Source of the DNA: Reclinomonas americana ATCC 50394
Lineage: Eukaryota
NCBI GenBank assembly: GCA_048213135.1
Contig: PS015164.1
Span: 1-64,000 of the forward strand
Reading direction: 5' to 3'
DNA length: 64,000 nt
The notes beneath the pieces were generated by a model. It was not told the origin of the DNA and did not search any database. It saw only the letters and a list, made by a program, of their open reading frames with translations. Position numbers and translations under genes: made by a program. Shown here one piece after another: positions 1 through 36,787 of the stretch. Numbering within the stretch: position 1 is the first letter of the stretch; each line of letters begins with the position of its first letter.

Positions 1-3000
1 TGGTGTGATTACTGGCGGCAGCGTGACGACCGCTGGCTCGCTGCAAGGTGGTAGCGTCAGCACTCTCGGCGTGATCAACGCTGGTGGCGTGATTACTGGC
101 GGCAGTGTAACGACCGCTGGTTCTCTGCAAGGCGGCAGCATCAGCACTCTCGGTGTGATCAACGCTGGTGGTTTGATCACTGGCGGCAGTGTGACGACCG
201 CTGGCTCTCTTCAAGGCGGCAGCGTAAGCACTCTCGGCGTGATCAATGCCGGTGGTGTGATTACTGGCGGCAGTGTGACGACAGCTGGCACTATGCAGGG
301 TCTGTCTCTGAGTGCATCTGGCGTCATCAGCGGCGGAAGTGTGACGGCTGTGGGTTCGCTGCAAGGCGGCAGCATCAGCACTCTCGGCGTGATCAATGCC
401 GGTGGCTTGATCACGGGCGGCAGTGTGACGACAGCCGGCTCTCTGCAGGGCGGCAGCATCAGCACTCTGGGTGTGATCAGTGCCGGTGGTGCGATTACTG
501 GCGGCAGTGTGACGACTGCTGGTTCTCTGCAAGGCGGTAGCGTCAGCACTCTCGGCGTGATCAACGCTGGCGGTCTGATCACTGGCGGCAGTGTGACGAC
601 CGCTGGTTCTCTGCAAGGCGGCAGCGTCAGCACTCTTGGTGTGATCAATGCCGGTGGTGTGATTACTGGCGGCAGTGTGACGACAGCTGGTTCTCTTCAA
701 GGCGGCAGTGTCAGCACCCTCGGCGTGATCAATGCTGGCGGTTTGATTACTGGCGGCAGTGTGACAACCGCTGGCACTGTGCAGGGCCTGTCTTTCAGCG
801 CATCTGGTGTCATCAGTGGTGGCAGTGTGACCACTGTGGGTTCCCTGCAAGGCGGCAGCATCAGCACTCTCGGTGTGATCAACGCTGGTGGTTTGATTAC
901 TGGCGGCAGTGTGACAACCGCCGGCTCTCTGCAAGGCGGCAGCATCAGCACTCTTGGTGTGATCAATGCCGGTGGCTTGATCACTGGCGGCAGTGTGACA
1001 ACCGCCGGCTCTCTGCAAGGCGGCAGCATCAGCACTCTTGGTGTGATCAATGCCGGCGGTCTGATTACTGGCGGCAGTGTGACGACCGCTGGTACGGTGC
1101 AGGGCCTGTCTCTGAGTGCATCAGGAGTCATCAGCGGTGGCAGTGTGACGACAGCTGGTTCGCTGCAAGGCGGCAGCATCAGCACCCTCGGCGTGATCAA
1201 TGCCGGTGGTCTGATTACCGGCGGCAGTGTGACGACAGCTGGCACTATGCAGGGTCTTTCTATCAGTGCATCTGGCGTCATCAGCGGTGGCAGTGTGACG
1301 GCTGTGGGCTCTCTGCAAGGCGGCAGCGTAAGCACTCTCGGTGTGATCAATGCCGGTGGTCTGATTACTGGCGGCAGTGTGACGACAGCTGGTTCTCTGC
1401 AAGGAGGCAGCGTCAGCACCCTCGGCGTTATCAACGCTGGCGGTCTGATTACTGGCGGCAGTGTGACGACCGCTGGTTCGCTGCAGGGCGGCAGCATCAG
1501 CACTCTCGGTGTGATCAGTGCCGGTGGTGTGATTACTGGCGGCAGTGTGACGACTGTGGGTTCTCTGCAAGGAGGCAGCATCAGCACTCTCGGCGTGATC
1601 AACGCTGGCGGTCTGATTGCCGGTGGCAGCGTGACGACAGCTGGCACGGTACAGGGTCTGTCTCTCAGCGCATCTGGCGTCATCAGCGGTGGCAGTGTGA
1701 CGACTGTGGGTTCTTTGCAAGGCGGCAGCGTAAGCACCCTCGGCGTCATCAACGCTGGCGGTCTGATTACTGGCGGCAGTGTGACGACCGCTGGTTCTCT
1801 GCAAGGCGGCAGTGTCAGTACTCTCGGCGTGATCAACGCTGGCGGTCTGATTACTGGCGGCAGTGTGACGACTGCTGGTTCTCTGCAAGGCGGCAGCATC
1901 AGCACTCTCGGCGTGATCAACGCTGGCGGTCTGATTACTGGCGGTAGCGTAACGACAGGTGGCACGGTGCAGGGCCTGTCTCTCAGCGCATCTGGTGTCA
2001 TCAGCGGCGGCAGTGTCACCACCGTGGGTTCGCTGCAAGGCGGCAGCATCAGCACTCTCGGCGTGATCAATGCCGGTGGTCTGATTACCGGTGGCAGTGT
2101 GACGACAGCTGGTTCTCTGCAAGGCGGTAGCGTCAGTACTCTCGGCGTGATCAACGCTGGCGGTCTGATTACTGGTGGCAGTGTGACGACCGCTGGTTCT
2201 CTGCAAGGCGGCAGCATCAGCACTCTCGGCGTGATCAACGCTGGCGGTCTGATTACTGGCGGTAGCGTAACGACAGGTGGCACGGTGCAGGGCCTGTCTC
2301 TCAGCGCATCTGGTGTCATCAGCGGCGGCAGTGTGACCACTGTGGGCTCACTGCAAGGCGGTAACGTCAGCACTCTCGGCGTGATTAACGCTGGCGGTTT
2401 GATCACCGGTGGTAGTGTGACGACAGCTGGTTCACTACAAGGCGGCAGCATCAGCACCCTCGGCGTGATCAATGCCGGTGGTCTGATTACCGGTGGCAGT
2501 GTGACGACAGCTGGTTCGCTGCAAGGAGGCAGCGTCAGCACCCTCGGCGTTATCAACGCTGGCGGTCTGATTGCTGGCGGCAGTGTGACGACAGCTGGTT
2601 CGCTGCAAGGAGGCAGCATCAGCACTCTCGGCGTGATCAATGCTGGCGGTCTGATTACTGGCGGTAGCGTAACGACAGGTGGCACGGTGCAGGGCCTGTC
2701 TCTCAGCGCATCTGGTGTCATCAGCGGCGGCAGTGTGACCACTGTGGGCTCACTGCAAGGCGGTAGCGTCAGCACTCTCGGCGTGATTAACGCTGGCGGT
2801 CTGATCACCGGTGGTAGTGTGACGACAGGTGGTTCACTACAAGGCGGCAGCATCAGCACCCTCGGCGTGATCAACGCTGGCGGTCTGATCACCGGTGGTA
2901 GTGTGACGACCGCTGGATCGCTGCAAGGCGGCAGCATCAGCACTCTCGGTGTGATCAATGCCGGTGGTCTGATTACCGGTGGCAGTGTGACGACAGCTGG

Positions 3001-5745
3001 TACGGTGCAGGGCCTGTCTCTCAGCGCATCTGGTGTCATCAGCGGTGGCAGTGTGACGACTGTGGGTTCGCTGCAAGGCGGCAGTATCAGCACTCTCGGG
3101 GTCATCAACGCTGGTGGCTTGATCACTGGCGGCAGTGTGACGACAGCCGGCTCTCTCCAAGGCGGCAGCATCAGCACTCTGGGTGTGATCAATGCTGGCG
3201 GTCTGATTACTGGCGGCAGTGTGACGACCGCTGGTTCTCTGCAAGGCGGCAGCATCAGCACCCTCGGTGTGATCAATGCTGGCGGTCTGATTACTGGCGG
3301 CAGTGTGACGACAGCTGGCACTGTGCAGGGTCTGTCTCTCAGCGCATCTGGTGTCATCAGCGGTGGCAGTGTGACGACTGTGGGTTCTTTGCAAGGCGGC
3401 AGCATCAGCACTCTCGGCGTGATCAATGCCGGTGGTGTGATTACCGGCGGCAGCGTGACGACAGCCGGCTCTCTCCAAGGCGGCAGCATCAGCACTCTGG
3501 GTGTGATCAATGCTGGCGGTCTGATTACTGGCGGCAGTGTGACGACAGCTGGCACGGTACAGGGTCTGTCTCTCAGCGCATCTGGTGTCATCAGCGGTGG
3601 CAGTGTGACGACTGTGGGTTCGCTGCAAGGCGGCAGTATCAGCACTCTCGGCGTGATCAATGCCGGTGGCGTGATTACTGGCGGCAGTGTGACGACAGCT
3701 GGTTCGCTGCAAGGAGGCAGCGTCAGCACCCTCGGCGTTATCAATGCCGGTGGCGTGATTACTGGCGGCAGTGTGACGACCGCTGGTTCTCTGCAAGGCG
3801 GTAGCATCAGCACTCTCGGCGTTATCAACGCCGGTGGCTTGATTACTGGCGGCAGCGTGACAACCGCTGGCTCTCTTCAAGGCGGCAGCGTAAGCACTCT
3901 CGGCGTTATCAACGCTGGCGGTCTGATTACTGGCGGCAGTGTGACGACCGCTGGTTCGCTGCAAGGAGGCAGCGTCAGCACCCTCGGCGTTATCAATGCC
4001 GGTGGCGTGATTACTGGCNNNNNNNNNNNNNNNNNNNNGGCAGTGTGACGACAGCTGGTTCGCTGCAAGGAGGCAGCGTCAGCACCCTCGGCGTTATCAA
4101 CGCTGGCGGTCTGATTACTGGCGGCAGTGTGACGACCGCTGGTTCGCTGCAGGGCGGCAGCATCAGCACCCTCGGCGTTATCAACGCTGGCGGTCTGATT
4201 ACTGGCGGCAGTGTGACGACAGCTGGCACTGTGCAGGGCCTGTCTCTTAGTGCATCTGGCGTCATCAGCGGTGGCAGTGTGACGGCTGTGGGCTCTCTGC
4301 AAGGCGGCAGCGTAAGCACTCTCGGTGTGATCAATGCCGGTGGTCTGATTACCGGCGGCAGCGTGACGACAGCTGGCACTGTGCAGGGTCTGTCTCTCAG
4401 TGCATCTGGAGTCATCAGCGGTGGCAGTGTCACCACCGTGGGTTCGCTGCAAGGCGGCAGTATCAGCACCCTCGGCGTGATCAATGCCGGTGGCGTGATT
4501 ACTGGCGGCAGTGTGACGACCGCCGGTTCTCTGCAAGGCGGCAGTGTCAGTACTCTCGGTGTTATCAACGCTGGCGGTCTGATTACTGGCGGTAGTGTGA
4601 CGACCGCTGGATCGCTGCAAGGCGGCAGTATCAGCACTCTCGGTGTCATAAATGCCGGTGGCTTGATTACTGGNNNNNNNNNNNNNNNNNNNNNNNNNNN
4701 NNNNNNNNNNNNNNNNNNNNNNNNNNNNNNNNNNNNNNNNNNNNNNNNNNNNNNNNNNNNNNNNNNNNNNNNNNNNNNNNNNNNNNNNNNNNNNNNNNNN
4801 NNNNNNNNNNNNNNNNNNNNNNNNNNNNNNNNNNNNNNNNNNNNNNNNNNNNNNNNNNNNNNNNNNNNNNNNNNNNNNNNNNNNNNNNNNNNNNNNNNNN
4901 NNNNNNNNNNNNNNNNNNNNNNNNNNNNNNNNNNNNNNNNNNNNNNNNNNNNNNNNNNNNNNNNNNNNNNNNNNNNNNNNNNNNNNNNNNNNNNNNNNNN
5001 NNNNNNNNNNNNNNNNNNNNNNNNNNNNNNNNNNNNNNNNNNNNNNNNNNNNNNNNNNNNNNNNNNNNNNNNNNNNNNNNNNNNNNNNNNNNNNNNNNNN
5101 NNNNNNNNNNNNNNNNNNNNNNNNNNNNNNNNNNNNNNNNNNNNNNNNNNNNNNNNNNNNNNNNNNNNNNNNNNNNNNNNNNNNNNNNNNNNNNNNNNNN
5201 NNNNNNNNNNNNNNNNNNNNNNNNNNNNNNNNNNNNNNNNNNNNNNNNNNNNNNNNNNNNCGGTAGTGTGACGACCGCTGGCTCGCTGCAAGGCGGCAGC
5301 ATCAGCACCCTCGGTGTGATCAACGCTGGCGGCCTGATTACTGGCGGCAGTGTGACGACCGCTGGTTCTCTGCAAGGCGGTAGCGTCAGCACTCTGGGTG
5401 TGATCAACGCTGGCGGTCTGATTACTGGCGGCAGTGTGACGACAGCTGGCACTATGCAGGGCCTGTCTCTCAGCGCATCGGGAGTCATCAGTGGTGGCAG
5501 TGTGACCACTGTGGGCTCACTGCAAGGCGGCAGCATCAGCACCCTCGGCGTCATCAACGCTGGCGGTCTGATTACTGGCGGTAGCGTAACGACAGCTGGC
5601 ACTGTGCAGGGTCTGTCTCTCAGCGCATCTGGTGTCATCAGCGGCGGCAGTGTGACGACTGCTGGTTCTCTGCAAGGCGGCAGCATCAGCACCCTCGGCG
5701 TGATCAGTGCCGGCGGTCTGATTACTGGCGGTAGTGTGACGACAT
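1..5745 (+). repeat. Coding tandem repeat array of 84-bp (GGSVTTAGSLQGGSISTLGVINAGGLIT) and 66-bp (GGSVTTAGTVQGLSLSASGVIS) units
   Basis: Dozens of near-identical units directly visible, interrupted by N gaps at 4019-4038 and 4674-5260. Confidence 0.97.
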
Positions 5746-6916
5746 CTGGTTCCGTGTCAACGTCGACACTCAGCGTCGCATCCACGACAACAATCAACGG
5801 TCGGCTGCGCCTGAAGCAGGACAATACTAACTATACGGTTTCCACACCCGATGGATATGGCTTCCTGCAGTACACGTCGACGCAGAAAGTTTCGTGTTCG
5901 TTTCCCGGTCGAAGTTTTTCTTGCTTTGTACTCATCATTGATGCTGCCGCCAGTTGTACTTGCTCGGTGACGATGGAACGTACTACAGCATGACAACCAC
6001 GGTCAGTTCATGTTTTTGTCGATTCTGCTCTGCTCGCTGTGCTCACCTTGCTCGTTCTCCGATGCAGACGGGTTCTACGCCCTCGGACGCCCGCCTGAAG
6101 CAGAACGTTCAGCCAATCGCAGGCGCCAATAGCCTCGTCCGTCGACTCCGTGGCCGTACGTTTGAGTGGAATACGGTGGGTATTGCCATGTGGCTGTGTG
6201 TGCGTGTGCGTCTGTGGACATTTGTGAGACTCATGACGTCGATTCGTTGTATTGCAGGCCGCCAAAGCATTCGGGTTTGAGCCAGGCGAGAAGTCGATCG
6301 GCTTCATCGCCCAGGAGCTCGAAATGTTGGTTCCTGAACTGATCGAGACCGAGCGTCACCCCAGTGGCTTGGTGAGTCTTGCTGCCCCAGTGTGGCAGTC
6401 GAAATGATCGCTCACGTATCTACATTACAGTCTGTTAAGCGAGTTGCTTACGGCCCGGTGGTGGCCATTCTTGTTGAAGCGCTGAAAGAGCAGCAGTTGA
6501 CACTGGAGCAGCAGCAGTTGACACTGGAGCAGCAGCAGTTGACACTGGAGCAGCAGCAGTTGACGGTGGAGCAGCAGCAGAATGTGCTCACCGTCTACGA
6601 TGCCGAGTTTGCGAATCAGCGGCTGAAGATGGCTGATCAGGAACGTATTAATCGGGAGCAGGAGTTGAAGATGGCTGAACAGGAACGCGTGACCCAAGAG
6701 CAGCTTGCCGAGCAAAAGCGCATCACACAGGAGCAGGAGCTGAAGGTGGCTGAACAGGAGCTGAAGCTCGCGGAACAGGAACGCGAGTTGACCGAACTTC
6801 GTCGTCTTGCCGAGGTGCACTCGCAGCAAATCGCCGAACTGAGCCGTTTGATGGCCACGCTGGCGGCAGCACGTTCCAGCAACGAACTTTCCCAGCAAGA
6901 CAACAAGCCAATGTAA
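1..6916 (+). CDS. Giant G/S/T repeat fibre-like protein with C-terminal peptidase S74 / intramolecular chaperone (ICA) domain and coiled coil; 5' partial
   Basis: Repeat exon to 5888 (two N gaps), then exons 5954-6001, 6068-6175, 6258-6371 and 6431-6916 joined by GT-AG phase-0 introns. The spliced product has PSDARLKQNVQPI, GFIAQELEMLVPELI and VAYGPVVAILVEALKEQQ, which are classic S74 motifs. Confidence 0.9.
6488..6580 (+). repeat. 21-bp coding repeat (EQQQLTL x4) in coiled coil
   Basis: gagcagcagttgacactg-type unit repeated; heptad period. Confidence 0.9.
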
Positions 6917-6972
6917 CAACATGCAGTGTTTTATTGACAATCTCTCCAACAATGGTTTGGCACCTCTATTCT

Positions 6973-9900
6973 TCAGGGAGAGTGACTGTCTCGGTTGATG
7001 AGCACATGCGGACTCTTGTAAGGGTCGGGGCGTGCACAAGGAATCACATGCCAGATTTGCTCGGCATACTGCAATAGATCTCGATTAGTAGTGACACACG
7101 CAGTTGCATATGCAGGCTCTGCACGCCGCACCTCGCGCACACTGCGATCGGAGGAAAAGTAGCCGCTGCGAGCAGTCGAAGTCAGACTCTTGCGAATCCA
7201 CTCTCGTGGATTCTTGTACAGCTCGTCCACATTGCCCTGAATCCGGAGATAGTCGGCAAAGTCATATGCTGCAATGTACTGTCATTGTCGCACGATGAGC
7301 TCAGCAAGTGAGCAAGCAACAACAGGTGCACCGGCGGGGGAGCATAACGCACCTTGTTGAAGATGGTGCCGACAAAACGATCAAATCCGAACTGCCGATA
7401 ATCGCCAAACGTGCCACTCCGAATGAGATCCAGCACGCGAGTTAGCCGCTGGTCCTCGCGGAAGCTGCCTGAACGCACTGAATCCCAGGCGGATTGCACC
7501 TGATCACAGCGGCAGCCAAAGATGAACATGTTGTCCTCGCCGATTTGCTCCGCAATCTCCACATTAGCGCCATCCATCGTGCCGATAATCAGGCAGCCGT
7601 TCATGGCAAACTTCATGTTGCTGCAGCGATGTGATGAGTGGCCACCATTCTTCTTGCACTATTCTGCATGGCGGCTCTGACGCAAACAAACCTGGTACCG
7701 GAAGCCTCATAACCGGCAGTTGAAATCTGCTGGCACACATCCGCTGCCGGGATGATGATCTCGGCCAGTGACACCTTGTAATCCGGCAGGAACACCAGTT
7801 TCAAGTACGCATTTGTCTCAAGGTCGTGATTGATCACCGCGGCCACGTTGTTGATCAGCTTGATTGTGATCTTGGCGACCTCGTATCCGGGGGCGGCTTT
7901 TCCGGCAAAAATCACGGTTCTCTTGACCGTTCGCGCACGCTCCTCGGCCGACATTCGCTTCAGCTCGTCCCACCGATGAATCACACTACAACGCAAGCCA
8001 CGGGCATGAACACAACCGCCATGGAAAGTATGCATGCACAGTCCATGTCACACACCTCAGCAAGTTGAGCGACTGCCGCTTGTACTCTGCCAACCGAGAG
8101 CGCACCATTGAGCACTGCTGTGAGTATCGACGGCGAGCGGTCCACCACCACCACCACCACCAAGAACTTACCGTGAATGCGCTTCACGTGCACATCAAAC
8201 AGCGACGACCGATCGACGACGATGCCAGTCTCGTCCTCGATGTGCAGTGCTGCATGGGTTGGAATGGTGCGTGAGCGGCGGATTCAGTCACGCAGCGCGC
8301 TCGTGTTGCGACAAACCCAGAATCTCCTTGTTGTACCGCCGCACTTCTTGCCACTCGCGCTCCAGTTCCGGATCACCAATCACATCGAGCAGGGCCGTCA
8401 GTTTTGAGAGCTTGGTCATCCAGTGATGGTCATCGCACCACTTGCACACCAGTTCGGTGTACTTGGGATTCGCGAGAGCCATCCACCTGTGGGGCCGGGG
8501 GAAATTGTCGTGGTGGTAGTGAGTGCGAGAGGAAGAGAGAGAGAGAAAACATGTGGAAGTTCTCACCGCCGCGGTGTCACTCCGTTCGTGACATTGACAA
8601 AGCGATCCGGAAACATGCTGGCAAAGTCGGCAAAGAGCGAATCACGCAGAATCTCCGAGTGCATTCGCGAGACACCGTTGACTTTGAAGGAGCCGACGGC
8701 TGCCAAGTGAGACATGCGAACCCACTTGGGCTCACCCTCCTCGATGAGACTCATGCGAGCCAGCTTGTCGCGATTGCCAAAGTGTGCCTCCACGTCGATC
8801 AGGAAGCGGCGGTTGATTTCGTAGATGATTTGCATGTGACTGAGCACAAGAACACAAGAGGCGACTGTGAGGTGGTGGCAACTCGGGGACGATGACGCAG
8901 CACACGGACGCACCGAGGCAGCAAGTTCTCCATCAGCGACACGCGCCATTTCTCCAGCGCCTCAGGCAGCACGGTGTGGTTCGTGTACGCAAACGTGTTG
9001 CGCGTGATCTCCCAGGCCTCCTCCCATCCGAGGAACTCTGCGTGTACGTGTGCGTGTGGCAAGACATGAGCTGCTGTCAAGCTGCGTGGTGCGCACGGGC
9101 GCACGTACCTTCGTCGAGAAGAATGCGCATCAGTTCGGGAATGGAAATGGTGGGATGGGTGTCGTTCAGTTGAATCACCACCTGCGGAATCAATGAGTAC
9201 CCTCATGGTGAAAAGAAAGAAATACTGGGCTATGCGAACCTTGTTTGGCAGCTCGCTCAACGGCAGCGACAGCTTTTTGAATCGTCGCAGAATGTCCTGG
9301 ATGGTGGCACTCGAGAAGAAGTATTGCTGCTTCAGGCGAAGCTCGTTTCCTGGGGCGGGAGAAACAGTGAGAGGGGGAAGCGAGAACAATAGAGGTGCGC
9401 CTCACGTACCTCGGTACTGGTGGTCATTCGGGTACAACACCGACGTGATGGTCTCCGACTTGTTCTTCTCTCCAATGGCACCAACATAGTCGAATCTACA
9501 CGAACCGCATCGTGATGAGCGACGGAAGCAGTGAGAGGCGCGTGGAAGTGGGCGGACTGACGAACGAGTTGAACAGGTCGTAGTCAAACTCGCGAGATGG
9601 CTTGGCCTTCCACAGGCGCAGATTGTTCACATTGAAGGTGTCGTAGCCGGGGATCGGGTTGTCGTAGGCACAGGCAAACACGCTTTCGCCACCTTGCCAG
9701 TGCACCTATTCTTCCCCCGCATGAGAAACACCGTGTCACAAGAGGGAACGAAGCAGCTGCAGTGCCATGCAACAAACCCTCATGCACCCGAGCTCGTCCT
9801 CGTACCACGATGTCTCGCCGTAGAAACGAACTGGATAGTACACGTCGAGTCGCTCAATCTCCCACGGGTTTCCGCGAGAAAGCCTGCCACAATAACTAAG

Positions 9901-11567
9901 ACCGACGGCGCAGCGCGAGAAGGATGATGATCCGTGTCTCACCAGTAATCAGGACGCTCCTTCTGGAACCCGTCGACGATGCTCTGCGCAAACATGCCGT
10001 ATGTGTAGCGGATGCCGTATCCCCACGCCGGCAAGTTGGCCGTGGTCATCGAGTCCTACACACGCAGAGGGGGAGAAATGGTCAGCCCAGATGCCCTCCG
10101 CATAACGGTGCACGACAGCAGCAGCAGCAGACCAGATAGCATGCCGCCAGACGCCCGAGGCCGCCGTTTCCGAGTGCTGCATCCTGCTCTTCGTCGTACA
10201 GCTCCTCCAGCGCGTACCCAAAGTCAGTCATCGCTGTGAAACAAGGAGGTGAGTGCTGAGGAGTGCCCATACGCAGCGGGATACGCACACACACCTTGTC
10301 CGTACTCGGAGGTGAGATCGAGATTGAAGAGTGCGTTTTGCAGGCTGCGGCCCATCAGGAACTCCAGACTCATGTAGTACACACGTTTGCCTGCATGCTC
10401 GGTGATGTACTGCGGGGTGGGGATGGAAAGAGAGGTGAGGGGGGTAGGGAGGGCGAGGGAGAGAAGGGGAGGGAGAGGGAGAAGGAGAGAAAGAGAAGTG
10501 GAGGGAGGGGGAGACGAAGAGCGGATGGGTGTGAGGCGCGGTGTGCGCGAGAGAGAGAGAGGAGGAGGAGAGAAGGAGAGAGCGCCACAAGCCTGCACTC
10601 AACATGAGGTCATGAGACCCACAGGAATAAGTCAAACAACACACAGGAGGACTACAACTGTCGCGTCCAGACAACGGCCACCACCAACACACACAACGAC
10701 GAAGGCAAACCTGCTGCGTGTCATTCCAGCTCTCGATCAATCGATCGCGCACACTCAACGCCGTGGCCATGTACGTCGCCCACGACTCAATGTTGAAGCG
10801 AGTGCGTGCCAGCGTGTATTCGACATGGTTGACCACGTACTGCTCAATGTCACGCGGGTCCTTGGACAAGTACGTCGACATGAGCTCCCACATGCGACTG
10901 GTGCCGATCGGATTGCGCAGGTCCGCAGGTCTGTGCAATTACAGTGATAGGCGATCAGTATAGTCGACCAGTAACATGATGGCACGTAGCGCAAGACGCC
11001 GTACCGATACGCGATCTCGTTCTTGGCTGATGGTGACGCGCGATGTGACCAATGTGAGACAACACGCAGCGCAGCGATTCGGACGTGTCCGCATCGACAT
11101 GACGACTTACCGTGACTGCGTCGGCGTTTGAGATGAGGCGTCTTGCGCGGAATCACCGCCATGGAGGTGGGCGAACCTCCTCCACTGTAGGTGACCTCCA
11201 CACGCGCAGTCGGGCTGCTTCCATCGAAGCTGTCGACCACGGGCGGAAATCCACTGTCGCAGAGATGAGAAAAAGCACAGTGAAAGAAGAAGGTGGAGTG
11301 AGGAAGCACTCTGACCAGGGCGACTGCGGCGTGCTACTGAACTGTGTTGTTTGCGAGTGAGCGAGAGAGAGGAAGAACGCACATTGTGAGTTACGCAACA
11401 CGAGATTCCTCAGTGTCGGGCATTCCGCCACTCAGCGAGTTGCGTCGGCGTCGCTCACGTGGTGACATGCTGCCTCCTGCGCCTTGAGTGCCTGTGACTG
11501 ATGCAGAGGCTGGTGTACCACTCATCATCTGCTGTTGTTGTTGTGCGACAAAGTCCAACGTGTTCAT
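6973..11567 (-). CDS. glgP: Glycogen phosphorylase (multi-exon)
   Basis: Spliced motifs [71 protein letters not shown] (PLP lysine) and FSSDRSV. The start codon is inferred. Confidence 0.95.
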
Positions 11568-12137
11568 CGCTCCGCAACAACAACACAAAGGAAAACGATT
11601 GGCAAGGAGCGAATCTTGAACCGAATCTTTTCACGCACTCGTTCCCTCTCTCTCTCTTTCTCTGTGTGTTGCGTGCATGCCGCGTGCTGTTGTGACCGGT
11701 GGTGATTGGATACGACGAGGAAAAAAATCATCGTTCACTCATGAAGGTGGCGGGATTGGTAAGCAGTTGTGCGATTATTGGTTGTAGAAGTCGACATTAT
11801 GGTGTGAAACCTTCTTGCAGTGCGATACGAACGCGTGCCGAAACACAGAAGGCGAGAGGATGAGGTGTGTTGATACGCAAGTGTGCAGCGGGCAGGCGCC
11901 ATGTTCAACATGCAGTCTCCCAATTCGGACAGACCACATGGCCATGGATGCTGGCTGTGAAGAGAAGAGGGCAAGCGGTGTGCGGGCAGCACACAGCTGG
12001 GCCGAGGCGTTAGAGAGGCGCACACAAGCACACTGTGACAATGAGACTGCAGCAGTGCGTGAATCCGAACCGGCGCGAATCCGAACGCGCGGTGATTGAA
12101 AGAAAAAGTACGAATACGGCGAGAACATAAGGCGGCT

Positions 12138-13663
12138 TCATGACTCGCAGAGAGTGGCGTTGAAGGCCACAGTGGCCTCGGAGTGTGGGTGATGGCCGAC
12201 TCCTGTGCCGCTGTGAGTGAGGGGCGCGAGAGTGGCAAGCGAAGTGAAAACAAACCTTGCAACTCGATGACTTTGAAGTTGGGAGACTTGTTGCAGAGGG
12301 CGCGCATGTGCGGCCCGAAGGATGGATCGACAAACGGGTCGTCTCTGGTGGCATGCAAGAGCGTGAGGCGCGACTGTGTTTCACCAAACAACGACGCAGG
12401 CAGGCAGGCACTCACCGTCCGTAAATTACAGTGACCTGCAATGCGGGTGGAGCGTGAGTGGAGCGGCAAGGAGGGCGAGAGAGGAAGGGGATAAAGAGCG
12501 CACCGGTATGGTCAACGAGGGGAGATCTTCCTCCAACGGGTGCGTCCTGCGTTGGCCGTTGAATACAGTGTGTGTGCATGAAGATCCAGCAGACGAATAC
12601 ATACCATGGACTGTTTCGCGGCGACGGCAGCAACCGCGTCCAGGCGACTTCACCGCTGGCCGGCATAGCGGAAATATGGTACAGATACTCGGCCTGCCAA
12701 CGCACATGTGAGCCGGCGGGCGTAATAAAGCACCGGGAAAATTGAAGGCGAACCAGTCGATTGTCAGACCACGGGAAGCGGCCGCGATCCTGCCATCGAG
12801 CCGTGGACACCACCAGGTAGCCTACACAGAGGACTTATGAGCACACAGAGCCTAACGTGCGGGAGAAAGACCTGCAAGCAATAATCTCCCGTTGTGAGCA
12901 CTCTCACCAAAGTGAGGTCCGAGCGACCGAACGACATCCTGCGGGGTGATGCCGAGCACGCCAAATCCACCGGCGTCGCGGTCCAGATCGCCCGACTGCA
13001 TGTACTCGTGAAGGAACTGATCGAGTCGAGGGCTCTTGCGCAGGCCTGCGAGACGCAGTTAGTCACCAGAATGTCTCACGGCCGACAGCCACTCACCAAC
13101 AGGCGCATTCAGTATCAGCCGCCGAACTCGTTGCGGGTGCTCCAGAGCATACGACGCGGCCTGCACGACGAGTGAGAGAAGGAGAAGGAAAAGGAGGAGG
13201 AGGAGGAGGAGGAGGAGGAGGAGGAGGAGGAGGAGGAGGAGGAGGAGGAGGAGGAGGAGGAGGAGGAGGAGAGGAGGAGGAGGAGGAGGAGGAGGAGGAG
13301 GCGAAGGAGGAGAAGCGGAAAAGAGAAGGAAGAGAAGAAGAAGGAGAAGAAGAAGAAGACGAAGAGGGAGGAGGAGGAGAAGAAGAAGAACAAGAAAAGA
13401 TGATGATAAAAAAAGAAGAACAAGAACAAGAAGAAGAAGAAGAAGAAGAGGAAGAGGAAGAAGAACAAGAACAAGAACAAGAAGAAGGAGAAGAAGAACA
13501 AAACAAAACAAGAAGAAGAAGAAGCCAAGGAGGAGGAGGAGGAGGAGGAGGAGGAGGAGGAGAAGAAGAAGAAGAAGAAGAAGCAGAAGGAGAAGAACAA
13601 GAACAAAAAGAAGGACAAGAAGAACAAGAACAAGATAAAGAAGAAGAAGAAGAAGAAGAAGCA

Positions 13664-13695
<32 letters not shown>

Positions 13696-14352
13696 AGAGG
13701 AAGAAGAACAAGAAGAACAAGAAGAACAAGAAGAAGAAGAAGAAGAACAAGAAGAAGAAGAAGAAGAAGAAGAAGAACAAGAACAAGAAGAAGAAGAAGA
13801 AGAAGAAGAAGAGGGGAAGAAGGAGGAGAAGGAGGGGGAGGAGAGGAAGAAGAGGAGAAGAAGAAGAGAGTGCTGCGTGCGCGCCTCACTCAATCACTCT
13901 TGCACTCTCACTCTTTCACTCACTCACCAACGATCTTTGCCACACTGCCTGGTGGCTCGTTGCTGTGTGAGCAGCTGCACCCCATTCTCTCACACTCACT
14001 CACTCACAGATATCGCGAGCTCTGTCTCTCTCTCTTATCTCTTTATTTTGTGATGGATTTTGGGGCGGAGGTTGCATCGACACTTGCGGGTGGTGAGAGT
14101 GAGTGGCCGACGATCCGCGTGCAGGCGGTGGATGTCAGTGCGACTCCGGAGGCGATGCCGCTGAGTGTGTTGATGGCGAGGGTGGAGGAGGCGGTGGAGA
14201 AGAATGTTGAGGAGAGAGGGAGGAGAGAGGAGAAGGGAAGGAGAGCAAAGGCAACACGCACACACACACGCGAAGAGAGAGAGAGAGAGCTTCTCAATGC
14301 ATGCATTCTGCTCCAGAGAGACAGCAATCATGTCACTCTCTCTTTTTCTTTC

Positions 14353-14392
<40 letters not shown>

Positions 14393-15132
14393 GCTTTCTC
14401 TACTCACTGAATCACCGAGAGAGACAGACATACAAGCATTCCTCTTTCTTTCTTTCTCTTTCGCTCTCTCTTTCTCTCTCTTTCTCTGTCTTTCTCTCTC
14501 TCTTTCTCTCTCTCTNNNNNNNNNNNNNNNNNNNNNNNNNNNNNNNNNNNNNNNNNNNNNNNNNNNNNNNNNNNNNNNNNNNNNNNNNNNNNNNNNNNNN
14601 NNNNNNNNNNNNNTGAGTGACAGCGGAAGGAGGGAGAGTGGACTAGACAAAGCACGCAACGTGCTGTGTCAGTGTATCAATCTGCTTGGTCCACAGTCCC
14701 GAGCCACCTCCCCAGCCTGTCGCCACAATGCACTGAGTCTCTCTTGTCTGTCTCACTCCTCTCTGTCACACTCACACACCATGCAGCAACACAATGGTTC
14801 CTCCAGGCTCTCTCTTGCCCTCCACCTCTCGCACTCGTGAGCATCGCACAGTGTGCAAGAACAGAGACTCGCCCGCTGCTGCCACTCCATCCACTGAGTC
14901 ACGAGGAATCCGCACGTTCTGCACCTGCACGAGGCTCTCCAGACCTGACAAAGGCGACTGAGTGAGAGAGGGAAAGAGCAGAGACACAGAGAGAGACAAG
15001 GGGTGACTTGCCCTCAAACAAGCGCATTTCGGCTTCTGCGGCTGTCTGTGAGACCATGGTGCCTGCGCGTGCTCTCGCAAAGCCATAGGCGGCCGCGGCA
15101 AGAGTGCCCAGTGCACCAAAGCCCAACCACAT
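12138..15132 (-). CDS. Alpha/beta hydrolase, ABHD4/ABHD5-like (multi-exon; central exons not found)
   Basis: Exons encode IVLLHGWGGGSGLW, AASYALEHPQRVRRLILNAPVG and KVIELQGVGHHPHSE. The nucleophile-elbow exon was not located and may lie in the gap at 14516-14613. Confidence 0.7.
13193..13868. repeat. (GGA)n/(GAA)n purine microsatellite in intron
   Basis: Direct; it produces spurious poly-E/L/S ORFs. Confidence 0.95.
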
Positions 15133-18041: not shown

Positions 18042-19564
18042 TCATTTGAAATAGTACACGAGGAGCGTGACGGCCAGCACCAGCAAGAGGAACGGCAAAA
18101 ACGTGGCCAGCAGTGCCGCCGTGGAGGTGAACTTTCCGCGACACACAATGTTGGTGCCGATGCGTGCGGCGTTCCAGTCGGTGCGCCCGGCGTAGCGCAT
18201 CCGTCGCAGCGCGTACGCCACGTGCGAGTGGCAATTGTCGCAGCAAATATTGTGCACTCGTCGACTGTACTCTCGATTGGCGGCACGCACTGCCGCGTCC
18301 CACGCCTCCGCCTTGCTGCCGTGCGCACCGGCGTCGTCCGGGATGAGCGCAGGGTCCAGTCGCCACACCCTGCACCACACTCAATCAGTACCCCGACTCT
18401 GCAGTGGAAGCAACAAGCAGAGAACGGAACCGCAGAGTCGGGCCAAACACAAGCCGCCCCGAGTTGATGTAGTACGGGCCGGCAAAGTCGTAGATCACCC
18501 CGCGGCTGTCGCAAATGCCCGCGTGGCCGACGAGAGGGAACAGCCAACTGCGAGGGAGGGGAGAATGATGGGAGAGGAGAGAGAGGGAAGAAGGGGAAGA
18601 GAAGGAGAAAGACGAGGAGGAGGAGAACAAGAACAAGAAGAAGAAGACGAAGGACAGGAAGAAGAAGAAGAAGTAGAAGAAGCATGATGAGGAAGAAGAA
18701 GAAGAAGAAGAAGAAGAAGAAGAAGAAGAAGAAGAAGAAGAAGGACAAGAACTACAAGAACAACAGCAAGAGCAAGAACAAGAACAGAACAAGTGGAATG
18801 ACGAGAAGAAGAAAGAAGAGCCAAAAGCAGGAGGAGAAGGGGAAGCAGGAGAAGACAGGTGTGAGTTAGGCGTCGCCTTATCCATCGCCTGGAACACACT
18901 CTTCTCCTTCCCTTTCCTCTCTCTCTCTCTATCTCTGTACCTCAAGCACGGCAACGCCGTCCACACCACCGAGTACGGAAACAGCCGGTTGGCCGGCGGC
19001 AGCGGCTCACTCTCCGGCCACAGCATATCCCCGCTTTCAATCTCACCACCAAACATCGGCGTCGCATCCTTTCATTATCACACAGTCAGCACGGAGGATA
19101 GTACAAGAAGAAGAAGGAGGAGGAGGAGGAGGAGGAGGAGGAGGAGGAGGAGGAGGAAGAAGAAGAAGAAGAGAAGGAGGAGGAGAAGAAGGAGAAGAAG
19201 AAGCAGAAGAGGAAGAACAAGAGCAAGAACAAGGAGAAGAAGAAGAACAAGAAGATGAACAAGAAGAACAAAAACAAGAACAACAAGGAGAAGAACAAGA
19301 ACAACTAGAAGAAGACAGAGAGGAGGAGGAGAACAAGAAGAAGAGGAAGAAGAGGAAGAAGAACAAGGAAAAGAACAAGGAGAAGAACAAGAACAAGAAC
19401 AAGAACAAGAAGAAGCCAAGAAGAAGACAGGAGGAAGAGGAGAAGAGGAGAAGAAGAAGACTGATTGCATGTCTTTGTGTGCGCGCAACTGCATCACTTT
19501 CAAACATGTCAGCAGCGACTGTGCGACTGCCGCCCATGGGTGCCACAGAGGGACCGCCACTCAT
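18042..19564 (-). CDS. TMEM222: TMEM222 / RTE1-like (DUF778) membrane protein
   Basis: FPYSVVWTALP, GHAGICDSRGVIYDFAGPY and HNICCDNCHSHVAYAL across 4 exons. Confidence 0.9.
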
Positions 19565-26760: not shown

Positions 26761-26984
26761 CTCTCTCTCAATCTCTGCAGTTCCTTATCTGCGATCCTGA
26801 TCATCGTCGTCTGCCTTCCTCTCACATATCCCTTACTGCGCATCCCCTTCTGCATCCTCCTCTCTCTCTCTCTCTCTCTCTCTTCTCTTCTCTTCTCTTC
26901 TCTCCGCCCTCTATTTCCGAACACTCTGCAAGAATATCCTCCCACTCTCTCTCACCTTTGCTGCAGCATCCTCCGTCGCCGGCG

Positions 26985-27107
26985 ATGCAGCAGCCGGAGC
27001 ACTGCGTCGCACAAAAGACATGCGCGACTGTGCAAACACCCGCCAAAACATTCACACAAGAAGAAGCAGTGANNNNNNNNNNNNNNNNNNNNTCGTCCTT
27101 CCCTACC

Positions 27108-27146
<39 letters not shown>

Positions 27147-30100
27147 GGACTCTGCACTTCCGGGCGAGGGCATTGAGCTGTCGTGTCGACCGACCTTCTA
27201 TCTGCAAGCTGAAGGCTCTGCGGTGGCCGGCACTCTGCTGGTGACTCCGTTCCGCTTGGTGTTCCTGCCTGAGGTGAGCAAGGAGAGAGACAGGAGAAGA
27301 TGGAGGCGAAGAAGACGAAAGAAGAAGAAGGGGGAGGAGGAGGAGGAGGATATGAAGAAGAAGGGAAAGAAGCAAGAGACAACGAAGGGGAAGCGCAACA
27401 ACTGACAGACTGCCAGTGCATGCCAGTTGACTCCCTCGCTTCTTCGTCTTCGTTCGTCTTCTTCGCCTCCTCTTCTCCTTCTTCTTCTTTTTGTTGTTCT
27501 TGTTCTTCTTCTTCCTCTTCTTCTTGTTCTTGTTCTTCTTCTTCTCCTCCTCCTTCTCTCTCTCTGTCTTCTTCTTCTTTTTCTTCTTCTTGTTGTTCTA
27601 GTTGTTCTTCTTCTTGGTTTTTCTTGTTCTTCTTCCTGTTCTCCTTCTTCTTCTCTTCTTCTTCTTCTTCTTCTTCTTCTTCTTCTTCTTCTTCTTCTCC
27701 TTCTTCTTCCTCCTCTTCTTCTTTTCCTCTCCCCTCTCTCCCACCCTCACCATCTCCTTCTCCCTGACTGGTCTTTTGGTGATAGGATCGTGCGGCGGCT
27801 GNNNNNNNNNNNNNNNNNNNNACGGTGCAGTTGGTCTGTCGATTCCACTGCTGTCGATCTACTCGTGCAAGAAAGTGGGCGGGCGCTCGAGTCGTGGCGA
27901 TCATTCGTATCAGTTGGTGATCAAGAGCAAGGATATTCGCATGGCGCGCTTCTCGTTGGATTCGCGGCAGAGGACTCGCAAGGTGTGTGCGAGGAAGGAG
28001 GGTGCAATTTGAGTCGGCAGTTTGGTTTCCTTCGTGAGTCTGTCGAAGACCTGCGACTCTGTTCCTGTCTTCGCTCTTCTCTGCATCCCGCTGTCGCTGG
28101 ACTCATTGTTCTCTCTGTTGTGGTCCGCCTTGTCACGACCTTTTTTGTCCTGTCCTCCTCTCACCACTTCCCCCTTCCCCTCACTACCCCTCCATCCCAC
28201 CAGGGCCTCTGCGCGCTCGTCAAGCGCCTCATGCGCCCAAGCCGCATCGACGACACGTTTGCCATCAAGTACGCGCGCGGCGCGCGGCGGAACACCGGTG
28301 ACGTGGACGGCTGGACGCTGTATGTGCCGGAGGTGGAGTTTGCGCGCCAGCGTGCCGTCACGGGCGGCGGCGGGTGGCGGGCGTCGGACGTGAATCGCGA
28401 GTTTGCGCTGTGCGAGACGTATCCGGAGGTTCTGATTCGTTGCGTGATGTGACCAGAACTCAAGGAGGTTCTCTCTCTCTCTCCGGCGCTCACCGCGGAT
28501 TGCATCGCCACACAGAGCCGATCCCTGCCGACAATGAGTTGCTGTCGGAGGTGGCCGGCTTCCGCTCCAAGGCACGCATCCCTACGCTGTCGTGGATGTC
28601 GCGAGAGACAGGCGCCAGTATTTGTCGCTGCTCGCAGCCGCTGGTGAGTGCGTGCGCAGCCGAGAGAATCCATGCCGACGACTGCTCACGTCCTCCAACC
28701 AGGTGGGAGTCTTCAAGCGCACCTCGGAGGCCGATCAGCGACTCCTGACGCTGATTCGGCAGGCCAATCCGCAGGGAGCAGTGGAGAAGCTGCTGGTGAT
28801 TGATGCGCGGCCGCAGGCAAGCGCCACCGCCAATCGGGCGTTCCGTGGTGCCGGCGCCGAGTCGACCTCCGCCTACAGCGACATTGAGATTGAGTTTATG
28901 GACATTCAGAATATTCACGCCATTCGCGATAGTTTCCGCAAGGTGAGCGTGGAGGGGGAAGGGAGGAAGGGAGGAGAGAGAGTGACGATAACAGTGGATT
29001 GTGAAAGCAAAGGGCAGGTTGTCATCAACCTGTGAAGAACAATGAGATCGGCAGATTGAGAGAGAAAGAGAGGAATATGGAGGCGGGTACCACGAGAAAT
29101 CCTGAGCAACAGAACAAGCACAGAGACTGGAAGATGTGAGAGAGAGGGAGAGAGTGGCGATAACAATAAGGGCAGATTGTGATGTGACTCGGAAGATCGA
29201 GGGAGATGAATAATGAGATCGGCAGATTGATAGAGTTGAGAGAGGGGGACAAAGAGAATGAGCAAGAGACAGTAATGAGACTGGAAGACTAGAGGGAGAG
29301 AGTGATGAGTGGCAAAGCGACAGCACAGATACTCGAGTTGGAAGACCGTAGATTGTGAAGAAGGCGGAGATGTGAGTGGTGAGAGAGATACTTGAGAGAG
29401 TGTGTGAGAAAAATAGCAAGAGACTACGTTTGAGAACGAAAAGGAAAAANNNNNNNNNNNNNNNNNNNNGCTCTCTCTCCTCCCTCCTCTCCTCCCTCCT
29501 CTCTCTCTCTCTCTCCCTCTCTCCCTCCCTCTCTCTCCCCTTTGCTCACCGTTGCCCTTTCCATTCCCCCCCCTCTGGCAGATCATCGACCTGTGTGAGG
29601 CCGACTCGAATGCGGTGCTCGACAGCTTCATGAAGGACGTGGACGACTCGGGATGGTTGCGGCACATTCGCTTCATCATGTCGGGTGTGCGCCGCATTGT
29701 GAACGCCGTGCACCTGCAACGTCAGTCGGTGCTGGTGCACTGCACGGACGGGTGGGATCGGTGAGTGGCGAGGAGATGGCCTTCTCTCCCCCTTCTCTCT
29801 CTTCTCGCTCACGTGTCACGTACAGAACCTCGCAATTGACGTCGCTCGCGGAACTGTGCATGGACCCTTTCTACCGCACCATGGAGGGCTTTTGCATTCT
29901 GATCGAGAAGTCGTGGTTGAGCTTTGGACACAAGTTTGGCGAGCGGCATGGTTTGCTTTGATCCACGCACACCCCCTGTTCTCTCTGTCCATGTTCTTCT
30001 CTCACACCATTCTCGTCATCGGCAGCGCACGGCATGAAGGACTTTTTCCACGACCAGAGTGCGCCGATTTTCCTGCAATTCATCGACTGTGTGTGGCAAA

Positions 30101-31875: not shown

Positions 31876-33717
<1,842 letters not shown>

Positions 33718-34994: not shown

Positions 34995-36787
34995 ATGTCG
35001 TTGCGTTTTTGTGTGTGTGAGCTGCGATGTTGATCTCTCTTTTCCACCCTTTTTTTTGTGCATGTGTGTGTCCTTTTTTCTCGTGCTCCACTCTACTCAT
35101 TGGCACCCACAAAAACTTTCACTTTTCTGTGTGTCTTCTCTCGCGCGTCAACGTGTGACATGTCTGTTATTTGAACTGCATCACCGACGCGCGTTGTCTC
35201 GCTCTCTTTTTCTCTTTCTCACTCTCTCTCACTCTTTGTCTCGCTGTGTGTGTGTGTGTGCGGATGTAACTGTGTCTTTTCTTTCACTTGCTTCATTTTT
35301 TCTAATCTCTCTCTCCCCCGCTCCCCCACCCCTCCTCTCTCTCTCTCTCTTGTGCACGCACACTCTCTCATGCACCTCTCTTCTTGACATCCGCGCCATG
35401 ATCAACGTGCGACTTGTCTGTCTCCCGCAGTGCATGATTTTCCTTAAAATGACCCCACACACACTCACATTTTCGCCCCCACTCTCTCTCTCTCACACAC
35501 ACACAGTGGCCCACGCAAGAGTCGAAACTCGCAGTCGGGCCAGCAACTCCCTCCACCTCCTCTGGTTTGCGCACTGCCTGATTCGCGTGACTCCTCTCTC
35601 GCACACTGTCACTCACTTGTCTCTACAATCAGCATGTGATTCGAATCACCGCGCACGGAGATGGCTTTGCGACAATCCACGCTCCATCCGGCCGACTGCA
35701 CCTCTCCTTGGTCGACATCAACGGCTACGAGGTTCCACTATGGCGAGCATGCCGTGTCAGCGTCGATGACGCTGACCTCGCGGCCGTTGCGCTCCTCAAT
35801 CGGCGCATCAACTCGACCATGATCGTGTCGGCGAGTGGCGGTAGTTCGTTTGTCGTGCGTCTGATGGGCATGAACGGACATTCTGTGGATGTGCGAGTGG
35901 TGCTGACGCCGGAGCCGCCGCTGCCGCTGCCGCCACCGATCCAAGTTCGGGATCTGGGCGTTGGGTGGACCGACTTCACCGAGGGACCGCCGCGTGCGCG
36001 TGCGTTACTGACGTCGTTGCGCTATGTGCACCGAAACGTTTCCGACAAGAAGAAGAACAAGCGTGGGAAGCGTCCGAGCGATGGGCCTGCGGATGGCGAG
36101 CCGCCCGTGCGGCGCCAGCGGACAGACGCTGGTCAGGAGTCAATGGATGTGGATGCGCCGCGCCGGGCCGCGCGTTCTGTCGGCGATCTGCTGTTTGGAG
36201 ACAAGATCGAGGGCATGCGCGACGACAAGCCCGATGCCGAGGTCATCCTCGACCGTGATGAACCAGTGGCGGAAGAGTCTACTCGGAATCACCCGCCAGT
36301 TGCACCCAAGGACGCGGCATTTGCTTATGTGGACCCCCGTCTTGTGCGACTCCCAGACTGCGAAGGAGAGGACGCGGATGTTGCGAAGAGTCTGGTGACG
36401 GGCTTGCAGCTGCTCGCGTACTCTCCTGCCGAGTCGCCGCGATGGACACCACGACGTCAACAGCCGCCACCACCACCGCCGCCGCCGCCACCAATGCAGG
36501 CATTGCCGCCACCGCCGCCGCCGCCGCCGCCACCACCACCACCACCACCACCACCTCCGCCACCAATTCAGGCATTGCCGCCGCCGCCGCCACCACCACC
36601 ACCACCGCCGCAGCAAGTGTCGCGCGCCACCAACTTATTCGACTTCTACCGAGAGTCGTCGCCGCTGCCGCCACCACCGCCACCGCGAGCACAGCGCCAG
36701 CAACCGCAGCCGCAACCACAACCACAGCCACAGCCACTGCCACAGCCACAGCCGCTNNNNNNNNNNNNNNNNNNNNGTGTGCGTTAG
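34995..36787 (+). CDS. Orphan protein, paralog B
   Basis: Exons 34995-34999, 35507-35564 and 35633-~36787 (N gap near end); GRLxLSL, VPxWRAxRV, RALLxSLRY and EPPVxRQR shared with paralog A. Confidence 0.75.

Follow-up and report, generated by a model that had tools for sequence, protein, structure and literature searches.

Among phage tail fibres and tailspikes that end in an intramolecular chaperone (the Peptidase_S74 or ICA domain), K1F endosialidase is the model. Such domains serve phage and protist-virus fibres as modules for folding and cleavage. To our knowledge MYRF is the only case in eukaryotic cells, and there the fibre context has been lost. A Ser/Lys dyad and trimer-dependent cleavage have been described for both K1F endosialidase and MYRF; in MYRF the ICA domain directly follows a DNA-binding domain and is itself followed by a transmembrane helix (PMC3742443). 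Polinton-like viruses, from most eukaryotic groups, are reported to carry Peptidase_S74 at the C-terminus of modular fibres of up to 3.9 thousand aa, and those integrated in protist genomes carry giant fibre genes with S74 at the C-terminus (PMC12220804). A 1,529-aa S74 protein with an FhaB-like region is reported from a Heterosigma giant-virus genome (PMC13659346).

Here we describe a gene at the start of a 64,000-nt stretch of the Reclinomonas americana genome (hereafter the window). We think it probable that this is a resident nuclear gene encoding a giant self-cleaving homotrimeric fibre, of which the window shows the 3′ part (∼2010 codons). In the original prediction, made from the same DNA, the gene was described as eukaryotic and intron-containing, with phage-tail-fibre-like repeats, an S74 cap and no viral genes on the visible side. 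These elements hold; a ‘shifted donor’ proposed for one of the introns does not.

Repeat array of the fibre gene

A single open frame on the forward strand (2–5749), open at the window start and broken only by two N gaps, encodes 1712 stop-free aa of visible repeats. Segment 1 of the array (2..4018, +; 1339 aa, 28-aa and 22-aa units) runs in from the window start and is separated by an assembly gap of 20 N (4019..4038), across which the frame is uninformative since the true gap size is unknown, from segment 2 (4039..4673, +; 211 aa). Beyond a second gap of 587 N (4674..5260), segment 3 (5262..5749, +; 162 aa) carries the last repeats. The large exon ends in a non-repeat ‘neck’ (5750..5888, +), with the first charged and aromatic residues.

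The array was parsed into a 28-aa unit, GGSVTTAGSLQGGSISTLGVINAGGLIT, with 45 clean and 2 edge copies (47 in all), and a 22-aa unit, GGSVTTAGTVQGLSLSASGVIS (n = 15); these copy numbers are uncertain, as two of the 16 N runs of the draft assembly fall in the array. Tandem Repeats Finder gave an 84-nt period with higher orders of 150, 234, 318 and 402 nt. Among the 1712 residues there is no Asp, Glu, Lys or Arg, no Pro, no Cys and a single aromatic residue; the earlier claim of ∼1700 aa of repeats with almost no charged residues is correct, the number of charged residues being zero.

Comparison of the 45 clean 28-aa units showed 0.049, 0.023 and 0.335 differences per site at codon positions 1, 2 and 3, respectively, with pS of 0.40 and pN of 0.028 (pN/pS 0.07). 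When the same units were read in the other two frames the ratios were 2.5 and 3.2. Since copies of the unit vary almost solely at third codon positions, we conclude that the array is translated and that purifying selection acts on it. The fibre gene is coding and selectively maintained.

A piece of 209 aa from the end of the large exon, which includes the last repeats, gave a poor monomer prediction (AlphaFold2, pLDDT 50). A trimer prediction with three copies of the same piece, run without controls, scored 0.00 and is evidence neither way.

Intron–exon structure and the S74 domain

At the 3′ end of the gene four introns are required, of 59–82 nt, all GT–AG and all in phase 0. Intron 1 (5889..5953, +; 65 nt) is predicted from the GT–AG signals, from the frame and from an in-frame stop at 5991–5993 that would otherwise end the protein. 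It would be followed by exon 2 (5954..6001, +; 16 aa), putatively the last strand ahead of the cleavage site, which aligns weakly to two fetched proteins (P0041 and P0056), and by intron 2 (6002..6067, +; 66 nt). Exon 3 (6068..6175, +; 36 aa) carries the N-terminal half of the S74 domain as detected with Pfam. Intron 3 (6176..6257, +; 82 nt) interrupts the S74 domain between profile positions 31 and 36, and the second half of the domain lies, by Pfam and alignment, in exon 4 (6258..6371, +; 38 aa). Intron 4 (6372..6430, +; 59 nt) contains an in-frame stop. In exon 5 (6431..6916, +; 161 aa and TAA) the S74 domain ends at ∼6490 and a long Q/E-rich helix follows. Introns 2–4 are backed by the uninterrupted alignment of the computed exon join to intronless S74 proteins; the splicing pattern, that of intron 1 above all, is a model drawn from sequence signals. 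Removal of the four introns restores the Peptidase_S74 domain, as expected from the original claim that the C-terminus is split by four spliceosomal introns; the shifted donor is unnecessary, with a plain GT at all four donors.

The same prediction had named an S74 domain with a Ser/Lys motif and had pointed to the Pfam profile PF13884 as a check. The profile matched exon 3 (6068–6175) with 28.2 bits over positions 1–31 (gathering threshold 22) and exon 4 (6258–6371) with 17 bits over positions 36–56, below gathering alone; the coordinates are consecutive, and the scores are those of single exons, not of the spliced protein. The S-x-x-x-x-K spacing of the Peptidase_S74/ICA dyad is present as SDARLK (nt 6083–6100), a motif that occurs only once in the window when all six frames are read. 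The predicted nucleophile is the Ser at codon 6083–6085, with the Lys at codon 6098–6100, and cleavage is predicted immediately before the Ser.

The computed exon join matched 13 of the 165 fetched proteins by phmmer and 12 of the 165 by blastp. The closest S74 domain was that of P0075, a 677-aa protein from a public run assembly, with 39% identity over 97 aa and no gaps, spanning the exon junctions after residues 52 and 90. Seven PHROG tail-fibre families matched exon 3 and one matched exon 4, at the C-terminal end of their profiles. A PDB sequence search with exon 3 gave no matches at E ≤ 10, and a word-based protein search with the S74 exon gave 10 candidates, none of them scored.

AlphaFold2 folded exon 5 into one helix (residues 8–157, nt 6452–6901; pLDDT 91), Q/E-rich and with four exact 7-aa repeats. 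The C-terminal 141 aa of the protein are polar and helical and run to the stop codon. Of the ‘long coiled coil’ proposed earlier the 150-residue helix stands; the coiled coil is only putative, as is a role of the helix as the leucine zipper that forms the trimer core in the Peptidase_S74/ICA family, since the hydrophobic residues of the exon 5 helix show no clean a/d heptad pattern. The 3′ end of the gene encodes a bona fide S74 (ICA) domain with a Ser-x4-Lys motif, followed by the 150-residue helix.

Relatives of the shaft

A search with the shaft among 1.84 billion representative proteins returned 243 proteins at E ≤ 1e-3, the best at 1e-58 with 39% identity. Matches down to this E-value were at 37–42% identity, but in a low-complexity sequence; the closest database proteins, at most 39–42% identical, were mostly marine phage-type tail fibres. 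The best shaft matches were long fibre proteins, and some of those fetched have an S74 domain at the end. A protein atlas gave look-alike clusters labelled Uroviricota and Chlorophyta (scores 0.90–0.92, low recognition), at most a hint of lineage. No match for the shaft was found in PHROGs, and none for the 209-aa piece of the large exon by tblastn against named phages; a scan of IMG/VR with the same 209 aa gave 77 pattern matches, of which none was confirmed. A C-terminal module with the motif YADLAE is conserved in 35 of the 165 fetched relatives; its assignment to a known autoproteolytic family was dropped, as no Pfam family was found for P0016.

Like the window gene, P0075 has uncharged 11-aa repeats with an S-hydrophobic-T-T-x-G pattern and a GC-rich composition. 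It differs from the window gene in being much shorter, with one predicted open frame and no long C-terminal helix. It has an N-terminal hydrophobic helix ahead of the repeats and a C-terminal S74 domain (47.2 bits in Pfam), and only four other proteins matched it. Scanning IMG/VR with P0075 led to one locus (L001), with similarity confined to the S74 end; judging by the neighbouring ORFs, this locus is an ordinary phage tail fibre.

Genomic neighbourhood

The fibre gene is adjoined by a convergent, intron-bearing alpha-glucan phosphorylase gene (6973..11000, −; the upper limit of ∼11 kb is approximate), whose product is closest to a plant cytosolic enzyme among solved structures. The phosphorylase stop codon (6973–6975) lies 56 nt from that of the fibre gene. 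One phosphorylase intron was mapped (7621–7691; 71 nt, GT–AG), and the fibre gene introns of 59–82 nt resemble it; GC3 is 0.70 in both genes. The interval 5261–14515 has no N gap, so that the last repeats, the split S74 exons and the phosphorylase gene are contiguous.

In the remaining 57 kb downstream we scanned 20 ORF pieces with Pfam: 15 were named, all of them as cellular families, five had no family and none was viral. The names in the rest of the window include RTE1, RNase_PH_C, GBBH-like_N, Lipase_3, Myotub-related, Pkinase, TPR, LRR and Phosphorylase. The earlier statement that no viral genes flank the fibre gene on the visible side is therefore true of everything Pfam could name downstream. 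A search with Rfam over the whole window gave no matches.

Origin and likely function

By analogy with other members of the S74 family (phage endosialidase, tail fibres and MYRF), three chains would be held together at the C-terminus by the S74 domain and the helix, and the trimer would nucleate folding of the uncharged beta-repeat shaft. The shaft appears to have a basic unit of 11 residues, combined as 11+11+6 and 11+11. With the trimer correctly folded, the Ser in SDARLK would, as in the family, be activated by the Lys five positions further along and cut just before itself; this would free a 230-aa chaperone–helix module and leave at least 1780 aa as the mature fibre. Both the formation of a trimer and the cleavage are suggested here by family membership only. 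The gene may have started as a virus-type fibre gene, of a phage, polinton-like virus or giant-virus lineage, and would later have been assimilated, acquiring introns and the codon bias of the host and becoming closely packed with host genes. Export of the fibre, or its anchoring in a membrane, is probable, through an N-terminal element upstream of the window, by analogy with the hydrophobic helix of P0075. As a tentative and more specific reading, one that we hold to be possible and short of probable, the product is a domesticated virus-type fibre with a self-cleaving chaperone: an uncharged trimeric surface or extracellular hair or adhesin, encoded by an intron-bearing nuclear gene. Its length would be on the scale of ∼100 nm, a rough figure taken by analogy from phage long fibres. 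The roles proposed earlier (surface hair, adhesin, extrusome or prey-capture component) are hypothetical.

Introns alone are no proof of a function in the cell, because some nucleus-dependent giant viruses carry short spliceosomal introns. With the N-terminus and the upstream context outside the window, the gene may serve the cell or an endogenous virus. In the second case it would still be viral, the outermost gene of an endogenous insertion upstream of the window (a polinton-like virus, virophage or giant virus), encoding an attachment fibre for virus particles; we regard this as unlikely but give it real weight, since the best relatives of the shaft are virus-type fibres, the side on which a viral element could sit (upstream) lies beyond the window, and S74-capped giant fibres are reported from polinton-like viruses (PMC12220804) and the Heterosigma giant-virus genome (PMC13659346). 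It has to be set against four host-sized GT–AG introns within the last 1 kb, a GC3 the same as that of the host neighbour, a spacing of 56 nt between the stops, too short to hold a terminal repeat or flanking viral sequence, and the count of zero viral families in 57 kb downstream. The passages on introns in PMC12220804 make no mention of spliceosomal introns in such fibre genes. Nor is the window gene an uninterrupted viral-type open reading frame; its S74 domain can be read only after the four introns are removed.

An origin in a joining error or in decay appears most improbable. A relic (a dead viral gene), or the false joining of viral or bacterial sequence to a eukaryotic scaffold through misassembly or contamination, would fit a draft assembly with 16 N runs, two of them within the array; still, the gap-free interval 5261–14515 joins the last repeats and the split S74 exons to the host phosphorylase gene, raw DNA of a phage or bacterium could not carry the introns, and decay is disfavoured by pN/pS of 0.07 along with 1712 stop-free codons. 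Just as little credit can be given to a membrane-tethered regulator of the MYRF kind, in which S74 would release an N-terminal effector and the repeats would be a spacer. At least 1780 aa of fibre repeats precede the ICA domain, what follows it is a polar helix and then a stop, and a Pfam scan of 2–1501 and 5262–5888 turned up no Ndt80-type domain, even though the N-terminus of the fibre gene lies beyond the window and MYRF is described as the only well-studied cellular eukaryotic use of ICA (PMC3742443).

A resident fibre gene, the reading that we prefer, would mean that one nuclear gene, with spliceosomal introns, the codon bias of the host and strong purifying selection, holds the whole fibre-plus-chaperone design, and would show that eukaryotes are able to keep and express a viral structural machine. 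If it is indeed domesticated, a eukaryotic cell would for the first time be seen to use ICA in its original fibre-folding role, not in that of MYRF. With zero charge in a shaft of >1700 residues, the protein could offer a tractable test of chaperone-templated folding, and the gene a marker to tell fibre genes that have been assimilated from those of endogenous viruses that are still mobile. Should the gene belong to an upstream viral element, the result would be more modest: it would document that a viral fibre gene gained introns and ameliorated towards the host.

Comparison with known systems

With phage tail fibres the window gene shares, in this order, a long Gly/Ser/Thr-rich beta-repeat shaft, a short neck, an S74 domain with the Ser…Lys pair and a C-terminal helix. 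The S74 ends of several marine phage-type fibres (P0002, P0003, P0041 and P0150) resemble named cyanophage tail-fibre genes. Marine phage-type long fibres (P0001–P0004 and P0016–P0019) have an N-terminal attachment domain in common and 17-aa Gly/Asn repeats, and this phage unit and the 11+6 sub-unit of the window have a G-x-I-T-G-G and S-T-x-G pattern in common. Unlike phage tail fibres, the window gene is nuclear, has four spliceosomal introns and adjoins host genes; its shaft has no charged residue and is made of 28-aa and 22-aa repeats, and the helix after S74, of ∼140 aa, is far longer than in the phage proteins. Identity to phage-type fibres is only 28–42%.

Fibres of polinton-like and giant viruses are, like the window gene, reported as giant, with a single C-terminal S74 domain, and found in eukaryotic genome assemblies (PMC12220804; PMC13659346). 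They are described as modular, with laminin-G, collagen, BppL_N and similar domains, and as lying inside viral elements (PMC12220804; PMC13659346), whereas the window gene has a single uncharged repeat type, introns and a cellular flank on the visible (downstream) side.

MYRF and MrfA, membrane-bound transcription factors that use ICA for self-cleavage upon trimerisation, are like the window gene encoded by eukaryotic nuclear genes with an ICA domain in which the Ser/Lys motif is conserved. The MYRF-type Ndt80 DNA-binding domain was not found by Pfam in the pieces scanned (2–1501 and 5262–5888). The contrast with MYRF drawn in the original prediction is borne out: the window protein is not of the MYRF type, with at least 1780 aa of repeats and neck before the ICA domain and no transmembrane helix after it, and, unlike in MYRF and MrfA, its ICA domain caps a fibre as it does in phages.

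Repeat array

The window is nuclear DNA of a eukaryote at draft quality, with 16 N runs and a GC content of ∼0.5–0.6. On the forward strand a single open frame, made of repeats throughout, extends from the first bases to nt 5749; assembly gaps lie within it at 4019–4038 and 4674–5260. Tandem Repeats Finder gave an array period of 84 nt, with higher orders of 150, 234, 318 and 402 nt. At the protein level the array was parsed into two unit types, a 28-aa unit present 47 times (45 clean copies and two at segment edges) and a 22-aa unit present 15 times. Their order is irregular, commonly three or four long units and then a short one; both types share an 11-residue sub-unit (28 = 11+11+6; 22 = 11+11). 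The original prediction described at least ∼1700 aa of almost uncharged fibre repeats. We counted 1712 visible repeat residues, composed of G, S, T, V, L, I, A, Q and N plus three Met and one Phe, with no charged residue, Pro or Cys among them. The monomer structure model of the shaft (its last repeats) was poor.

The repeat array is real coding sequence. In pairwise comparison of the 45 clean 28-aa units, differences per site at codon positions 1, 2 and 3 were 0.049, 0.023 and 0.335; in the coding frame pS was 0.40 and pN 0.028 (ratio 0.07), while the identical calculation in the other two frames gave ratios of 2.5 and 3.2. A low and frame-specific pN/pS means that the unit copies are old at silent sites and the protein has been held nearly constant. 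This rules out a non-coding satellite and speaks against a pseudogene that died long ago.

Introns and the S74 domain

After the last repeat a neck of 67 aa bears the first charged and aromatic residues; if unspliced, the open frame past the neck would end at the stop at 5991–5993. A model with four introns on the same strand, at 5889–5953 (65 nt), 6002–6067 (66 nt), 6176–6257 (82 nt) and 6372–6430 (59 nt), all GT–AG, in phase 0 and with GC of 0.48–0.52, restores one continuous frame through the S74 domain up to the TAA at 6914–6916. Four introns had indeed been predicted, one of them with a shifted donor; the latter is unnecessary since every donor in the model is a plain GT. The alignment of the joined exons to the database protein P0075 crosses the junctions of introns 3 and 4 gap-free, and alignments to P0041 and P0056 also span the intron 2 junction; intron 1 is a model placement, the alignment support being for introns 2–4.

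Intron 2 has a length divisible by three and no in-frame stop, so its retention would add 22 residues just before the predicted cleavage site and leave the frame intact. All internal exons are multiples of three as well; skipping of exon 2 would also keep the frame.

The C-terminus of the gene product belongs to the S74/ICA family, as seen from the profile match together with the Ser-x4-Lys motif. The Pfam profile Peptidase_S74 (PF13884) gave 28.2 bits on exon 3 (cut-off 22; profile positions 1–31) and 17 bits on exon 4 (below the cut-off alone; positions 36–56), which places an intron exactly at the profile break. The predicted complete domain with its Ser/Lys motif is thus borne out: the Ser codon of SDARLK starts at 6083, and this is the sole such motif in the six frames of the window, which also has no further copy of the repeats outside the array. 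The joined exons match 13 of the 165 fetched proteins by phmmer and 12 by blastp, the best being P0075 (39% identity over 97 residues, no gap). PHROG tail-fibre/baseplate families match exon 3 (seven families) and exon 4 (one), in each case at the extreme C-terminal end of the profile.

Exon 5 completes the domain and continues into one helix (residues 8–157; AlphaFold2, mean pLDDT 91), Q/E-rich and with four exact 7-aa repeats at its start. Of the long coiled coil proposed earlier, the long helix stands; a clean a/d pattern of hydrophobic residues was sought in it and none was seen. A coiled coil is plausible, and we prefer the term ‘long helix’ because the pattern is not clean.

Neighbouring genes

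A convergent alpha-glucan phosphorylase gene has its stop at 6973–6975, 56 nt from that of the fibre gene, so the 3′ untranslated regions of both genes must overlap or be extremely short. One of its exons scores 111 bits with Pfam Phosphorylase, and the best solved relative of the enzyme is a plant cytosolic form; the gene has short introns, one of which was mapped at 7621–7691 (71 nt, GT–AG). GC3 is 0.70 in the phosphorylase exons examined, and the fibre gene outside its repeats has the same value. Between 5261 and 14515 the sequence has no N gap, so the stretch from the final repeats across the S74 exons into the host gene is contiguous.

As had been stated for the visible side, Pfam found no viral family when another 20 ORF pieces, taken from elsewhere in the window, were scanned; it assigned cellular families to 15 of them and no family to the other five. 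The named families were RTE1-like, RNase_PH_C, GBBH-like_N, Lipase_3, Myotub-related (three pieces), protein kinase, TPR (two pieces), LRR and Phosphorylase; also counted among the named pieces are two weak sub-threshold matches, to an aldo-keto reductase and a myosin-tail-like coiled coil.

Long purine-rich low-complexity tracts lie at 12950–14050, and also about 18400–18750 and 26900–27500. Several of their frames translate to poly-Gly/Glu/Lys/Arg, and the AT skew reaches 0.5; the tracts are candidates for intergenic simple sequence or acidic protein tails. Many N gaps are flanked by CT and CA microsatellites. The neighbouring ORFs at 32281–33714 (+) and 35591–36784 (+) share a conserved block (…GRL-L-SL-…-PLWRA-RV…) and look like tandem paralogues; Pfam names no family in either.

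Relatives in protein collections

HMMER was run with the final 209 aa of the large exon against the full set of 1.84 billion representative proteins. It gave 243 matches at E ≤ 1e-3, of which 40 reached E ≤ 1e-10 and four E ≤ 1e-30 (best 39% identical); among longer proteins, a word-based search returned 15 matches (best 42%). Given such best identities, the fibre protein and its close orthologues are absent from the collections searched.

The top matches are fibre proteins of 1200–2000 aa that share an N-terminal domain, contain extended stretches of 17-aa Gly/Asn/Thr repeats and differ in how they end at the C-terminus. P0002, P0003, P0041 and P0150 end in S74, that of P0002 resembling genes annotated as tail fibres in named phages, cyanophages among them; another conserved C-terminal module, with the motif YADLAE, is present in 35 of the 165 fetched proteins and has no Pfam name (P0016 scanned). 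The phage-type fibres P0001, P0016, P0017 and others combine one N-terminal domain and a 17-aa-repeat shaft with either cap. S74 and the YADLAE module are interchangeable caps at the C-terminus of a single type of shaft.

The nearest S74 is that of P0075 (677 aa, from a run assembly), which has a Pro/Ala/Arg-rich N-terminus followed by a 23-residue hydrophobic helix. An uncharged repeat of 11 aa occurs ∼17 times in it, and its C-terminal S74 scores 47 bits. P0075 shares with the fibre gene the repeat pattern S-hydrophobic-T-T-x-G. Only four other proteins match P0075, and its one IMG/VR match is a locus whose neighbouring ORFs point to an ordinary phage tail fibre. Possibly, P0075 is a membrane-anchored fibre from a GC-rich organism.

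Origin and proposed mechanism

S74 domains end giant modular fibre proteins of polinton-like viruses integrated in protist genomes (PMC12220804), and a Heterosigma giant virus has an S74 protein with an FhaB-like region (PMC13659346). The fibre gene might similarly be the terminal gene of an ancient viral insertion lying upstream, still viral in role; we regard this as rather unlikely. Assimilation into the host genome is favoured by the four introns of host size, by a GC3 like that of the host, by the strong purifying selection on the repeats and by the 56-nt spacing to the host gene stop. The intron passages in the main text of PMC12220804 concern group I introns only, and the literature searched for S74/PF13884 in eukaryotes or algae yielded no description of an intron-bearing cellular S74 fibre gene. 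ICA is also present in MYRF (PMC3742443). A MYRF-like reading of the gene has very little probability, and an artefact is just as improbable. On balance we lean towards a resident gene for a self-cleaving trimeric fibre.

The mechanism of such a resident fibre gene can be proposed from its S74/ICA membership. In this family the C-terminal domain forms a trimer and helps the segment before it to fold; the Ser/Lys dyad cuts the chain only in a correctly folded trimer, and the chaperone is then released (PMC3742443). By analogy, the S74 domain here would trimerise and support folding of the shaft, with cleavage in the correctly folded trimer only. The part released would be 230 aa, S74 plus helix, leaving a mature fibre of at least 1780 aa, plus the content of the gaps and of the upstream region. 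One could speculate that the unusually long helix is an added trimerisation or registration device.

The earlier molecular reading, an intron-split fibre gene capped by S74, was largely right; the domestication and the cell roles proposed with it are hypotheses. An S74-capped fibre is of an already known kind; what is unusual here is its genetic setting, nuclear and intron-split.
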